A stretch of 64,000 nt of DNA from Candidatus Thorarchaeota archaeon (GTDB lineage Archaea > Asgardarchaeota > Thorarchaeia > Thorarchaeales > Thorarchaeaceae). Location of the stretch: positions 64,001-128,000 of the forward strand of contig JBHIAE010000002.1 of assembly GCA_046758445.1 (NCBI GenBank), read 5' to 3'. The notes beneath the pieces are model-generated. The model did not search any database and had not been told where the DNA came from. It saw only the letters and a list, made by a program, of their open reading frames with translations. Made by a program: the position numbers and the translations under genes. This document shows, piece after piece, positions 9,398-59,850 of the stretch; position 1 is the stretch's first letter, and the number at the start of each line of letters is the position of its first letter.

Positions 9398-9506
9398 TGG
9401 TGGGCTCGGGGAGATTTGAACTCCCGACCCCCGCCTTGCAGAGTGAATGAGCTAGACCTCAATCACATATCAGAGCGGTGCTATAACCAGTCTAAGCCAC
9501 GAGCCC
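9398..9506 (-). tRNA. tRNA-Ile(GAT) with 31-nt intron (9437-9467) at 37/38; CCA encoded
   Basis: Acceptor GGGCTCG/CGAGCCC, anticodon arm CCGCT-CT-GAT-A/intron/A-GGCGG, T-loop GTTCAAAT; relaxed BHB. Confidence 0.95.
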
Positions 9507-9846
9507 AATGCTTGCTGCCAGACCGCATCAGTTGCGAATGTGATAAAAAGGTTGCGACCCACACGCTTGGCAATGTACTCGAAATTGAGCCTGACAATCT
9601 CAGACCCACTTACTTCCAGAGATTTGTGAAGAAGCTATGTGAATTAGATGCCCAATGGGCAATGTGCCTCTTCCTCTGGTCAGACTGTGTACACAGTGTC
9701 TTTTCGGACTCCCGAAAAATCTACATGTGTATTTGATGTACTATTTGGGCTGAGTGTTGTTGGGGAGAAAAACTGGAAACGATATCATCGAATTGGCGCA
9801 TTACCTCATTGAAGTCCCCACAGAACCACTAATGAGAAGTTAGAAC

Positions 9847-10527
9847 ATGAAGAGAATTGTCCTCAAAGGATTCTTGCTGGCTATCACACTCACACTAGCA
9901 GTCATGCCAGTTGCCCCGGTTTCTGCTGCAAACAATCAGGGTCTAGAGTGGGGCATTGCGGTGGGAACCCGGATAGACTACACCTATGAGTATCACCTGT
10001 CTAACAGCTCATTGGTAACACCGAAGGACGTCATCGAGAGGATCTGTGTCACTATTGATAGTTTGCCTAGGATCGAGGACGACATCTGCAATATGAGTCA
10101 GCTCTGGGGTTCCACATACACGCTCTACTGGACCAATGGGTCCAAAGTTCCGATACTAAGCCCCGTGAATTTCGCACTTCGCCCTGTTGGAAACTGGAGT
10201 CTTATGACGGAATTGATATTGCAGTATCCCACCATCGTACCTGAATCGATTCTTGATACGTCTACTTTATGGGGCTTCAACACAAGTGAGAGTTGGACCA
10301 ACACCCGAATGCATGCTATGTATGAAATCTCAAAACACGATGGTATAGCACACCGATTGTTTGTGAACGTGACAGAGAGGGTGAATGCAAAGTGGGGCAC
10401 CTCTACTTGGCTATTTACCCGCATGTTTGAGCCTAACGACGCATTTTCTGTAAGCTTGGTTTTAGGATTGGGCCTTACTCTCTTGGTTGTGGTTCTGGCT
10501 TCAATATACCGTTGGAGCAGACCTTAG
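9847..10527 (+). CDS. secreted, C-terminally anchored hypothetical protein
   Basis: Signal peptide (MKRIVLK...VSA), several N-X-S/T sequons, C-terminal TM with basic tail. Confidence 0.7.
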   Translation: MKRIVLKGFLLAITLTLAVMPVAPVSAANNQGLEWGIAVGTRIDYTYEYHLSNSSLVTPKDVIERICVTIDSLPRIEDDICNMSQLWGSTYTLYWTNGSKVPILSPVNFALRPVGNWSLMTELILQYPTIVPESILDTSTLWGFNTSESWTNTRMHAMYEISKHDGIAHRLFVNVTERVNAKWGTSTWLFTRMFEPNDAFSVSLVLGLGLTLLVVVLASIYRWSRP

Positions 10528-10654
10528 CAAGCCTGTGAACATAGCACCCTCCTTGATGATCTCTGATAAGGCGGATGTCGCGTGTTCAAATCACGCCGGG
10601 CCCACCATTGCTTCTTGCGCTTAGCTTTATCTTGTCCTTAGTCACTGCTGATGC

Positions 10655-10990
10655 TTGGTGACTTCAATGAGTTTCAATCCATGCGATGCCCGGTGTGAAG
10701 GCTGTCCTAGCTACTTGGGAAAAGGTGAGCCACCATGTGCTGGGTGCAGAGAGTCAGGTGAAAGACCATGGTGGGGCACATGCAAGGTCTTTGATTGCAC
10801 AACTGAGAAGAGTCTTAATCACTGTGGCCTCTGTGACGAGTTTCCAAGTGATCTCCTGATAGGTCACTATGACCCAGACAATCCCGAGGGGCAGCGAAAC
10901 GCGGCAGTTCGGGCTGGGGTTCTTGCCTATCTCGTCAGGCACGGGGACGACAAGGCTCTCGAACTATACAAGAAGATCAAGAAAGCCTAG
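10655..10990 (+). CDS. DUF3795-like Cys-rich protein
   Basis: C-x3-CxxC, CxGC, C..C, HCGLC..FP pattern. Confidence 0.7.
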   Translation: MVTSMSFNPCDARCEGCPSYLGKGEPPCAGCRESGERPWWGTCKVFDCTTEKSLNHCGLCDEFPSDLLIGHYDPDNPEGQRNAAVRAGVLAYLVRHGDDKALELYKKIKKA

Positions 10991-11012
10991 AATCCCATAG
11001 TTTCTGATAGCA

Positions 11013-12302
11013 ATGGAATGGAGAGAAAAGGAAGAGAGCGCCGTGCGGCGGAATGAGCGTCTGTGCACGAACTGTGGATTCTGTACAATATCTGTGGGTT
11101 GCCCAAGTCCAGAATATTGCGTTGGCTGTAGATCATGCTACATGGCATGTCCACAAGAGGCAATCTCTCTGACACAGAATGAATCTCCAAACAGCATTAT
11201 CATCACTATAGACGATCAGCCAGTACAGGTGCCTGACAACATCACCATCAAGGAAGCATTGCAGTCCTTTGGAATCGCCTTTACTCGCTATCCGAAAACA
11301 GCTCACTCCTTTGCCCCATGTGAAACTGGAGGCTGCTATGCATGTGCGGTTCTTGTGGATGGAGAGCTAAGTCCCAGCTGTCATACGGCCGTGAAACCTG
11401 GGCTGAACATACGTACAGAGGTTTCAGATCAGATACAGCCCCTTCGTATTGTCGGATGGTGTCAACCTCACTCCGTTGGAGGTGTTGGAACTCCCTGGTC
11501 GGAGAAGGCATTTGGTTTCGATTTCAGGGACTATGCCGAGGCTGCTTGCTTTGCGGCTGGATGTAATCTCCGATGCCGAACATGTCAGAACTTCAGCGTT
11601 ACGTACAACAGTGCCGCATCCGCAGTCACAGCAGAGCATGCCGCCCAGAAACTCCTTGGACTAGCCTTACGCGTCGGCGTCAAACGGCTGGCGATCTCTG
11701 GAGGCGAGGCCACACTCAACCGGCCGTGGCTCGAGGGCTTCTTCACATGGCTCAAAACACGCAGCCCTAGCGATTTCCGTCTACATCTAGACACGAACGC
11801 CACGATTCTTACTCCAGACTACATAGATGCCTTGGTGGAAGCAGGCGTCACTGATATCGGTCCTGACCTCAAGTCCGCTCGCTTGGAAACCTTCCAGAAT
11901 ATCACCGGAATAACAGATTCGACCCTAGCAGAGACCTACTGGACCACAGCTTGGAACGCTGTTCGCTACTTGGCCGACAACTACTACCCAGAACAACTGT
12001 TCATGGGGGTCGGGCTACCTTTCAATCCTGCCTTCTACTCGTCATCAGAAGCCATGGATGCGGAGCTCCATGAGTGGGGTACACGAATTGCTGATATCGA
12101 TGATAGAATCCAAGTGACAGTCTTAGACTACCGTCCCGAGTTCCAGCGTCATGACATCAGACGACCATCCAGTGCTAAGATGCGAAATGTCAAGGCCACT
12201 CTGGAAGGACTAGGTCTCCGGACAGTGTTAGCTCAGACAGCCATGGGTCATCTTGCACCTTCTCGACCTGCACCAGATCGAGAAGTACAACGATCCTCCT
12301 GA
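11013..12302 (+). CDS. radical SAM protein (PFL-activase-like) with N-terminal 4Fe-4S dicluster and 2Fe-2S-like domains
   Basis: CTNCGFC, CVGCRSCYMACP, CETGGCYAC, GCNLRCRTCQN, SGGEAT, DTN. Confidence 0.85.
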   Translation: MEWREKEESAVRRNERLCTNCGFCTISVGCPSPEYCVGCRSCYMACPQEAISLTQNESPNSIIITIDDQPVQVPDNITIKEALQSFGIAFTRYPKTAHSFAPCETGGCYACAVLVDGELSPSCHTAVKPGLNIRTEVSDQIQPLRIVGWCQPHSVGGVGTPWSEKAFGFDFRDYAEAACFAAGCNLRCRTCQNFSVTYNSAASAVTAEHAAQKLLGLALRVGVKRLAISGGEATLNRPWLEGFFTWLKTRSPSDFRLHLDTNATILTPDYIDALVEAGVTDIGPDLKSARLETFQNITGITDSTLAETYWTTAWNAVRYLADNYYPEQLFMGVGLPFNPAFYSSSEAMDAELHEWGTRIADIDDRIQVTVLDYRPEFQRHDIRRPSSAKMRNVKATLEGLGLRTVLAQTAMGHLAPSRPAPDREVQRSS

Positions 12303-12389
12303 TTCTGTCTTGCCGTGCCCAAAGACTATTCAGTGAAACTTCAGAACTTAATCGTTGAGGCCTTTTGTCGATAGTTAAGAGGACTGGGA

Positions 12390-12869
12390 ATGTCAAAGAA
12401 CGGGGAACGCATTGATGGCCAAATCAAAGGCATCGCAGAACGTCTAGAGGCCGCAATGACAAAGAATCCTGATGAACCTCTGGCTAACGGCACTCTGAAT
12501 GAACTATCTGACGAGAACTTCATGGATACTGTTCGACAGCCGAAGACTGCAATCGTCGAGTTCTACACCAATACCTGCCCATACTGCAAGCAGATGAAAC
12601 CTGTTCTTGATGAGCTCGCGAGTGACTACAAGTCGAAGGTGTATTTTGCAAAGATCAATATCGATGAGCATGAAGAGGCCGCAACAACGTTTGATGTAGA
12701 GGGTGTACCTCTCATCATGGCTTTCAAGAAAGGCAACCCGGTGGCCAGGATAGAGGGTCTAAGGAGTATTCATGAACTGGACGGGTGGATTGAGAGCATC
12801 CACAAAGGCCTACGACCAATGAGAATTGAGCCAGGTCCTGTCACAAAGGTCATTCTCGGTGACATATGA
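12390..12869 (+). CDS. thioredoxin family protein
   Basis: EFYTNTCPYCK active site and cis-Pro GVP. Confidence 0.9.
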   Translation: MSKNGERIDGQIKGIAERLEAAMTKNPDEPLANGTLNELSDENFMDTVRQPKTAIVEFYTNTCPYCKQMKPVLDELASDYKSKVYFAKINIDEHEEAATTFDVEGVPLIMAFKKGNPVARIEGLRSIHELDGWIESIHKGLRPMRIEPGPVTKVILGDI

Positions 12870-59110: not shown

Positions 59111-59554
59111 ACTTAAAGGAATTGGCGGGGGAGCACCACAAGGGGTGGAGCTTGCGGTTTAATTGGACTCAACGCCGGAAAACTTACCCGCCCAGACAGC
59201 CGGATGAGAGCCAGACTGATGATCTTGCTCGACGAGCTGAGAGCTGGTGCATGGCCATCGTAAATTCGTGCCGTGAGGTATCAGCTTAAGTGCTGCAACG
59301 AATGAGATCCCTGCCACCTAGTTGCCAGCCGGGGGCTTCGGCCCTGTCGGGGCACACTAGGGGGACCGCCAGCGAAAAGCTGGAGGAAGGTGGGGGCCAC
59401 GGTAGGTCCGTATGCCGCGATATGGGCGGGGCCACACGCGTGCTACAATGGCAAGGACAATGCGTTACGACACCGAGAGGTGAAGTCAATCGCGAAACCT
59501 TGTCGTAGTTGGGATCGGGGGTTGGAACTCACCCCCGTGAACCTGGAATCCCTA

Positions 59555-59584
59555 TCGACTGCAGACTCCCTGTAGTCGGGGAAA
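59555..59584 (+). other. 16S intron 2 (30 nt, after about 1346)
   Basis: Removal restores GGAATCCCTA|GTA; BHB helix TCCC/GGGA, stem CGACTGCAG/CTGTAGTCG. Confidence 0.92.
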
Positions 59585-59624
59585 GTATCCGCGTGTCACT
59601 ATCGCGCGGAGAATACGTCCCTGC

Positions 59625-59654
59625 AGGGGACGTGAATCCCACGTACCCGGGGAA
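59625..59654 (+). other. 16S intron 3 (30 nt, after about 1386)
   Basis: Removal restores GTCCCTGC|TTCTTGCACACA; helix CCCT/GGGG, stem GGGGACGTG/CACGTACCC. Confidence 0.9.
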
Positions 59655-59757
59655 TTCTTGCACACACCGCCCGTCGCTCCATGCGAGCGGCTTCTGGGTG
59701 AGGCGTTATCCTTTGGGTGATTACGAATCTGGGGGTCGCAAGTAGGGAGAAGTCGTA

Positions 59758-59787
59758 ACTGCGTCACACTTCGTGGCGTGGCGGAAC
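59758..59787 (+). other. 16S intron 4 (30 nt, after about 1499)
   Basis: Removal restores AAGTCGTA|ACAAGGTA; helix GTCG/CGGA (relaxed), stem CTGCGTCAC/GTGGCGTGG. Confidence 0.9.
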
Positions 59788-59819
59788 ACAAGGTATCCGT
59801 AGCGGAAGCTGCGGATGGA

Positions 59820-59850
59820 AGAAGTAGAGAGTCACTCTCGCTTCCATCAA
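59820..59850 (+). other. 16S intron 5 (31 nt, after about 1531, just before the anti-SD)
   Basis: Removal restores GGATGGA|TCACCTCCT; perfect helix GATG/CATC, bulges GA/A and AA/T. Confidence 0.92.

Follow-up and report, generated by a model that had tools for sequence, protein, structure and literature searches.

The bulge–helix–bulge (BHB) substrate of the archaeal splicing endonuclease EndA consists of two 3-nucleotide (nt) bulges on opposite strands with 4 base pairs (bp) between them, and the enzyme cuts after the second nucleotide of each bulge. Beyond this splice motif, BHB introns are usually regarded as structurally free, and the route by which they arrive at new sites is unsettled. 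We analysed a 64,000-nt stretch of DNA (G000:C2:64001-128000, hereafter the window) from a Thorarchaeota metagenome-assembled genome of 3.25 Mb and 113 contigs, in which Rfam models locate one archaeal 16S ribosomal RNA (rRNA) gene and three over-long transfer RNA (tRNA) genes. These four genes hold eight introns of 30–32 nt, and a single family of small introns seems to have colonized essential genes.

The closest described counterparts are the short (<50 nt), hairpin-forming BHB introns in the 16S rRNA genes of Thermoproteales, which co-conversion can spread once a nuclease has cut an allele lacking the intron, as for Pog.S1205 with Pog.S1213 (Jay & Inskeep 2015, PMC4496867). The Thorarchaeota introns are likewise BHB hairpins without an open reading frame (ORF), occupy conserved sites that include 908 and one near 1391, and are patchy in occurrence (compare PMC4496867). 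They differ in belonging to the Asgard phylum, in numbering up to five per gene and in forming one size and loop class common to tRNA and messenger RNA (mRNA) introns. In addition, no LAGLIDADG intron lies adjacent to them in 16S; the candidate nuclease for empty sites is instead an RNA-guided TnpB encoded kilobases away.

Transposed tRNA introns of Thermoproteales form families whose copies are very similar in sequence (Fujishima et al. 2010, reviewed in PMC4090602). As in those families, the non-canonical positions 20/21, 22/23, 45/46 and 53/54 recur and the endonuclease is of the broad-specificity (alpha-beta)2 type, whereas the introns described here share only geometry, loop and bulge, have diverged stems and also interrupt rRNA and protein genes. 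The cbf5 pre-mRNA of Crenarchaeota provides a BHB intron in a protein gene, removed by the tRNA-splicing enzymes (PMC2738675). Protein-coding genes split by BHB introns that would need the same enzymes occur here too, but they are EF-1alpha (in two relatives) and ahcY (in the window genome), in another phylum, and the EF-1alpha insert belongs to the mini-intron class of tRNA and rRNA. In two other Asgard families the tRNA introns have a median length of 22–23 nt; the study that describes them found no route of intron arrival and had rRNA and Thorarchaeota outside its scope (bioRxiv 10.64898/2026.10.13.758758). As here, the tRNA genes of those families are rich in introns, of which standard callers overlook many and the D-arm holds many; gains recur at BHB-competent sites, and there are two EndA paralogues.

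Mini-introns of the 16S rRNA and tRNA genes

The 16S rRNA gene was aligned to eleven relatives, several of them insert-free, which delimited its five inserts independently of any structure model:

58207-59859, + strand: 16S rRNA gene, 1653 nt with five mini-introns, 1502 nt spliced (Rfam SSU_rRNA_archaea, 1191 bits)
59081-59110, + strand: 16S mini-intron 1, 30 nt, close to E. coli position 908; 8 of 9 arm positions and 3 of 4 central-helix positions paired
59555-59584, + strand: 16S mini-intron 2, 30 nt, perfect 9-bp arm, loop ACUCC
59625-59654, + strand: 16S mini-intron 3, 30 nt, immediately 5' of the decoding-centre sequence
59758-59787, + strand: 16S mini-intron 4, 30 nt, within the GUCGUAACAAGG sequence, loop ACUUC
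59820-59850, + strand: 16S mini-intron 5, 31 nt (one bulged A), abutting the anti-Shine–Dalgarno sequence on its 5' side

Cutting out each insert returns the universally conserved 16S sequence and an exact match to intron-less relatives. Among the genomes aligned, intron 1 is unique to the window genome, intron 2 also occurs in relative G017 with compensatory changes, and alleles of intron 3 are found in relatives G018, G009 and G055. The Rfam match ends at 59794 because the two 3' inserts derail its alignment; alignment with relatives places the real 3' end, with the anti-Shine–Dalgarno sequence, at 59859. The 23S rRNA gene lies on a different contig. In the window, Rfam matches comprise rRNA and tRNA only, with none to a group I or group II ribozyme core, for which 30 nt is far too short, and the 30–31-nt 16S inserts leave no room for a LAGLIDADG ORF.

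Alternatively, the rRNA inserts might be small expansion segments that are kept in the mature 16S rRNA rather than introns. Expansion segments are reportedly known in Asgard rRNAs, but we consider this explanation of the inserts very improbable. All lie within universally conserved single-stranded or core sequence (near 908, flanking the decoding centre, in GUCGUAACAAGG and before the anti-Shine–Dalgarno sequence), every one has a BHB in the correct register, and they are present or absent between close relatives. Furthermore, tRNAs carry this element as well, and so does the EF-1alpha reading frame, neither of which could tolerate its retention. A 27-nt extra hairpin at 58404-58431, relative to the Rfam 16S model, is a helix expansion present in all aligned relatives and not an intron; a loose BHB scan of 16S was dropped because ordinary rRNA helices swamped it.

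Six extra copies of the 16S tail, each with the last ~60 nt of the gene and ~100 nt of the downstream spacer, lie at ~37.4, 43.6, 46.1, 48.0 and 65.2 kb of G000:C14 and at G000:C2:129166-129267. Five of the six hold their own intron-5 allele (30–32 nt). The set resembles the attachment-site repeats of integrated elements with the 16S 3' end as their target.

Each tRNA gene of the window has one intron, at the canonical position 37/38:

9401..9506, - strand: tRNA-Ile(GAU) with one intron (Rfam tRNA, 52.5 bits; cloverleaf parse after excision)
9437-9467, - strand: tRNA-Ile(GAU) intron, 31 nt: 1 nt, 9-position arm (8 bp, one U-U), 6-nt loop, arm, 4-nt exon-pairing strand, 2 nt
43365..43479, - strand: tRNA-Leu(CAA) with one intron (Rfam tRNA, 43.1 bits; cloverleaf parse)
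43410-43441, - strand: tRNA-Leu(CAA) BHB intron, 32 nt, central 4-bp helix perfect, own stem only ~5 bp
55848..55951, - strand: tRNA-Ala(CGC) with one intron, G3-U70 present (Rfam tRNA, 54.6 bits)
55884-55913, - strand: tRNA-Ala(CGC) mini-intron, 30 nt: 1 + 9 + 5 + 9 + 4 + 2

The anticodon stem provides the outer helix of the tRNA-Leu intron. ARAGORN without its intron mode reports zero tRNAs in the window and, with introns allowed, often gives wrong boundaries or anticodons; it was replaced by Infernal matches combined with a cloverleaf-and-BHB parser. Where splice points could slide by 1–2 nt, the register that gives the best BHB was chosen. About 1 kb from the real tRNA-Ile gene, at 10561-10607 (+ strand), is the intron-less 3' half of a tRNA-Ile-like gene, extending from the anticodon loop to CCA, which looks like an integration-site duplicate.

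Hairpin geometry, intron length and splicing machinery

A reading of the window made from its sequence only had proposed that these introns share a fixed layout of 1 nt, a 9-nt arm, a 5–6-nt loop, a second 9-nt arm, a 4-nt exon-pairing strand and 2 nt. All eight introns fit this layout, and the details given with it (5-nt loops, but 6 nt in tRNA-Ile; the bulged nucleotide of 16S intron 5; the looser tRNA-Leu intron) were each confirmed. The central BHB helix has 3–4 of its 4 pairs in all eight. In a gapless alignment of 16 introns of 30 nt, taken from tRNA, 16S and 23S genes of the window genome and its relatives, 93.8% of cells are paired, compared with 36–44% when the partners are slid by 1–3 columns, and 13 of 13 pairs vary on both sides. 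The sequence-only reading had also stated that primary sequences differ. This holds for the stems but not for the whole element: the pentaloop has the consensus A-Y-U-Y-C over 14 independent sites (A 9, Y 13, T 11, Y 12, C 11; P from 2e-3 to 4e-5), the 3' bulge begins with A at 12 of these 14, and the closing pairs of the hairpin tend toward A-U and G-C.

The '1 + ... + 4 + 2' frame is the generic BHB rule, and only the 9-bp stem and pentaloop are therefore special to the group. At each of the five 16S sites, and at most of the non-canonical tRNA sites, the outer exon–exon helix has only 0–3 bp, a departure from the strict hBHBh' form. A rule-based genome scan for 9 bp plus 5 nt gave no excess over mirrored geometry (275 versus 273); a position-weight scan returned 17 matches of at least 16 bits versus 1 in the mirrored-geometry null. 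Intergenic hairpins at C72:11441 and C12:68394, which have no Rfam match, were set aside.

We propose that these introns are probably one lineage-specific BHB mini-intron family, cut by a permissive, broad-specificity (alpha-beta)2 EndA, with stem length held by pairing and the loop by selection. Each copy would comprise one nucleotide, a 23-nt hairpin (9 bp and the A-Y-U-Y-C pentaloop), 4 nt that pair with the 5' exon and 2 nt, usually AA. In the precursor RNA, the exon would pair with the intron to give the central helix of 4 bp, flanked by a 3-nt bulge on either side; the (alpha-beta)2 endonuclease would cut after the second nucleotide of each bulge, and RtcB would join the exons. We infer such splicing from the restored mature sequences and reading frames. 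Copies in tRNA, 16S, 23S and mRNA would then be alike as versions of a single module that colonized many sites, and not through length measurement by an enzyme. Once a copy is in place its stem length would be locked, because a single insertion or deletion breaks the helix; the loop would be kept by purifying selection, and some partner therefore probably reads the hairpin tip. Among tRNA introns, the older ones at the canonical position may use the anticodon stem as outer helix and be free to shorten or become irregular.

Throughout the window genome, we catalogued the following introns:

16S rRNA: 30, 30, 30, 30 and 31 nt
23S rRNA: 31 and 216 nt
tRNA, canonical 37/38: Ala 30, Ile 31, Lys(CUU) 30, Leu(CAA) 32, Leu(UAA) 33, Gly 33, Val(CAC) 35, Ser(GGA) 22 and Trp 59 nt
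tRNA, non-canonical, 30 nt: Leu(CAG), His, Lys(CUU) second intron, Arg, Asp, Val(UAC) and Ser(GGA) D-loop
tRNA, non-canonical, other lengths: Phe 31, Ser(GGA) T-arm 31, Thr 32, Lys(UUU) 32 and Glu 33 nt; Ser(UGA) ambiguous, 31–35 nt
mRNA: ahcY, 32 nt

Thirteen of these 30 introns are exactly 30 nt; five are 31, four are 32 and three are 33 nt, with one each of 35, 22, 59 and 216 nt and one ambiguous. The tRNA census is incomplete, as several tRNAs with two or three introns escaped Infernal and were found only by chance. For example, tRNA-Ser(GGA) at G000:C1:82317-82483 (+), whose three introns lie in the D-loop (30 nt), at 37/38 (22 nt) and in the T-stem (31 nt), was missed by both Infernal and ARAGORN. 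Another unannotated tRNA, at G000:C7:~21019-21055 (-), has a T-loop intron of 30 nt. Upstream of the window, the 59-nt intron at 37/38 of tRNA-Trp(CCA) (G000:C2:34520-34652, +) has box C/D-like motifs and resembles the known archaeal tRNA-Trp guide-RNA intron. Larger 23S introns (216–911 nt) occur in the window genome and its relatives: the site of the 216-nt intron (G000:C53:14810-15025) holds 106- and 420-nt inserts in two relatives, and another 23S site holds inserts of 285–791 nt.

The 16S site 4 provides a series of orthologous alleles. In 12 genomes of at least 8 genera its intron is always exactly 30 nt, 96% of cells are paired, and 6 of 9 arm pairs show substitutions in both strands, while the loop is ACUUC in 9 of the 12 genomes, with single changes in the other 3. 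The loop is thus slower to change than the paired stem, which argues for selection on loop sequence; together, constant length, the conserved loop and stem covariation point to selection on the hairpin. Across the Thorarchaeota family, 32 rRNA mini-introns were seen, of which 25 are 30 nt, three 31, two 32 and two 33 nt.

The splicing enzymes are encoded in the genome. EndA alpha (195 amino acids) carries the catalytic residues Tyr, His and Lys and a loop of the crenarchaeal type that characterizes broad-specificity enzymes; among solved structures it is nearest to the catalytic subunit from Aeropyrum pernix (3P1Z_B). A second paralogue of 250 amino acids is without the His and is therefore taken to be the structural subunit, and the RtcB ligase is encoded at G000:C6:22854-24164. 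An Asgard (alpha-beta)2 EndA with an L1 loop has been reported (PMC5829648), and the enzyme of the window genome fits this type, which suits many non-canonical positions and relaxed motifs. Because the BHBs of 16S and of most non-canonical tRNA sites are relaxed, a broad-specificity EndA is needed, and one is present. Inspection of EndA subunits, which had been suggested as a check on the splicing machinery, thus yielded alpha and beta paralogues of the broad-specificity type.

The sequence-only reading had offered a length ruler or an additional stem-binding factor as one explanation of the shared geometry, with a broad distribution of lengths as the sign against it. The distribution is sharply peaked, with 25 of 30 introns at 30–33 nt, yet introns of 22, 59 and 216 nt occur. 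In its fuller form, this alternative holds that the splicing apparatus or an accessory protein grips the hairpin tip and needs a fixed 9-bp distance to the bulges, such that only 30-nt introns are processed well at difficult sites. The twelve orthologous alleles of exactly 30 nt at site 4, a loop there that evolves more slowly than the paired stem (the reverse of the neutral expectation) and the recurrence of one loop consensus over tRNA, rRNA and mRNA sites all favour it, as does a ~70-residue N-terminal extension of EndA beta that is absent from solved homologues. That extension, however, is strongly acidic, unlike an RNA-binding segment. Moreover, the 22-, 59- and 216-nt introns are presumably spliced in the same genome; four sister genera with near-identical machinery have tRNA introns of 16, 18, 18, 20, 21, 23, 24, 24, 28, 29 and 29 nt, some of them non-canonical; and intron-5 alleles, including those of relatives and of the 16S-tail copies on contig C14, are 30, 30, 31, 31, 32, 32 and 33 nt. 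The short introns of the sister genera coexist with 30-nt introns bearing ACUUC-type loops. A general length ruler is therefore unsupported, the enzymes evidently accepting lengths other than 30 nt, and we consider a ruler or hairpin-binding factor unlikely. As the conserved loop and the invariance of site 4 go beyond what descent alone would give, we nevertheless keep a hairpin-reading factor as a live rival. A weaker form, in which something selects on this hairpin, is plausible in view of the twelve 30-nt alleles at site 4.

Convergence on a minimal design could also produce a peak at 30 nt. Without an outer helix from the exons, as in rRNA cores and tRNA arms, only a long, perfect intron helix might be cleavable, and deletion would shrink each intron independently to the smallest workable hairpin. 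Consistent with this, the tight 30–33-nt class comprises the rRNA and non-canonical tRNA sites, where the outer helix is short, whereas introns at the canonical 37/38 sites, where the anticodon stem gives an outer helix of 5–6 bp, range from 22 to 59 nt and often have poorly paired stems; lengths also accumulate at the lower edge of the main peak. The sequence-specific loop, the A-rich 3' bulge and the preference for 9 bp plus 5 nt over 8 + 6 or 10 + 4 are left unexplained, however. In addition, a non-canonical T-arm site in relatives holds introns of 18, 24 and 29 nt, and the rRNA mini-introns of another Asgard family are 32–34 and 49 nt. We regard independent shrinkage as quite improbable and favour a single mini-intron family.

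Distribution among relatives and copies in protein genes

Presence of the 16S introns is patchy even among close relatives. The nearest 16S (96% exon identity, same genus) is intron-free, G018 (94.9%) holds intron 3 only, and G017 (92.5%) holds introns 2, 4 and 5; more distant genera share subsets. A covariance model built on the mini-intron class, R1, searched with a lossy first filter, has matches in 9 of 26 genomes of the family and in 0 of 124 genomes of 26 other families in the phylum. A single mini-intron family across tRNA and rRNA, which the sequence-only reading had given as its other explanation, is the better supported of the two, on the shared geometry, loop and 3' bulge, the patchy presence and the restriction of R1 matches.

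Protein genes are also affected. In relatives G053 (G053:C197:6147-6176) and G003 (G003:C15:202262-202291), which represent two genera, a 30-nt member of the class with the loop AUUUC interrupts EF-1alpha between GHKDFI and KNMITG. Unspliced, the gene meets a stop codon after 108–114 codons; removal of exactly 30 nt gives 438–454 codons and restores the GHKDFIKNMITG motif. The two copies differ by compensatory stem changes, and in each genome the interrupted gene is the sole close EF-1alpha gene. This intron is present in 2 of 86 family genomes; EF-1alpha of the window genome is uninterrupted. In the window genome, the only AdoHcyase gene, ahcY, changes frame at its GHPS/VMD motif, and removal of 32 nt restores the frame. 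This insert (G000:C4:20225-20256) has a BHB, a 5-nt loop and an AA 3' bulge, and is only a loose fit to the mini-intron class, with two mismatches in its 10-position arms and a central helix of 3/4.

It had been suggested that 30-nt copies inside mRNAs would preserve the reading frame and so escape ORF calling. Copies inside mRNAs do occur, in EF-1alpha of two relatives and, in looser form, in ahcY, but each breaks the frame or introduces a stop codon and is hence visible to ORF calling. Silent in-frame copies were not borne out, as the two best in-frame candidates in coding sequences of the window genome are ordinary coding sequence: C5:96421, in an NADH-oxidase-like gene, aligns without gaps to 1XHC, and at C48:15569, in the RFC small subunit gene, the protein is conserved and synonymous changes break the hairpin in orthologues.

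TnpB loci and the spread of the family

Downstream of the 16S gene, 6.7–8.6 kb past the window end, a TnpB-like gene (G000:C2:134674-136614) encodes a protein of 588 amino acids with a PF07282 Cas12f/TnpB zinc-ribbon domain. We examined a 4.5-kb region, 12.6 kb downstream of 16S, for guide-like segments. Three such segments follow the TnpB-like gene, each directly after GTCGG, and match spliced 16S across junctions 2, 4 and 5; they are the three best matches of the 4.5-kb region to spliced 16S. All three targets are preceded by CGGAT in the intron-less 16S, and the introns split each target beside that motif. Homologous loci in 11 relatives have segments that span junctions 2, 3, 4 or 5, and often share a contig with the 16S gene, 7–12 kb apart. 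Reading of the TnpB-locus sequence revealed no convincing likeness between the intron hairpin and a TnpB guide-RNA scaffold.

Nuclease-driven retention or homing is thus a plausible driver at 16S sites 2–5, with TnpB as the putative nuclease. A TnpB aimed at empty sites parallels the logic of homing endonucleases and the co-conversion of hairpin introns in Pyrobaculum (PMC4496867). More speculatively, the 30-nt hairpin might be a mobile, ORF-less BHB element whose A-Y-U-Y-C tip is a handle for a dedicated factor and whose spread and retention in essential genes are driven in trans by TnpB cutting intron-less alleles; we hold this to be possible, if doubtful. If true, it would constitute a guide-RNA-based homing (toxin–antidote) system for introns, in which a break made at the DNA level is mended at the RNA level by the intron.

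Several observations weigh against a single family that has moved between sites, or limit how far it can be taken. Guide-like matches for tRNA, 23S or EF-1alpha junctions (the last in G053 and G003) were sought and none was found, and TnpB therefore falls short of accounting for the family as a whole; matches across tRNA intron junctions proved to be tRNA paralogues, one tRNA 3'-half copy or chance 13–14-mers. Arm identity between non-orthologous introns is 5.44/18 against a pair-shuffled null of 4.73 +/- 0.19 (P ~0.001), and the top non-orthologous pair, at 13/18, has P = 0.15. Stems across sites are thus barely above chance, and so leave no direct trace of recent between-site copying. The case for common descent then lies in geometry, loop and bulge, features that a functional constraint common to the sites might also generate. 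The genomes analysed are all metagenome assemblies. Finally, the R1 model is biased to its training family, and the first filter of its search is lossy (4 of 11 training members recovered in the window genome), so the distribution counts are lower bounds.

The mini-introns affect how such genomes are read. Standard tRNA callers mishandle genes that carry them, the Rfam 16S model mishandles the rRNA gene, in which introns occupy the 1492R primer site and the anti-Shine–Dalgarno region, and essential genes, EF-1alpha for example, can be mistaken for pseudogenes when they contain a 30-nt insert. New here are a discrete, recognizable intron class in tRNAs, both large rRNAs and protein genes with a loop that appears to be under selection, gain or loss so recent that close relatives differ, and RNA-guided nucleases apparently aimed at the empty allele at four 16S sites. 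The Thorarchaeota mini-introns thereby render archaeal intron mobility directly testable.

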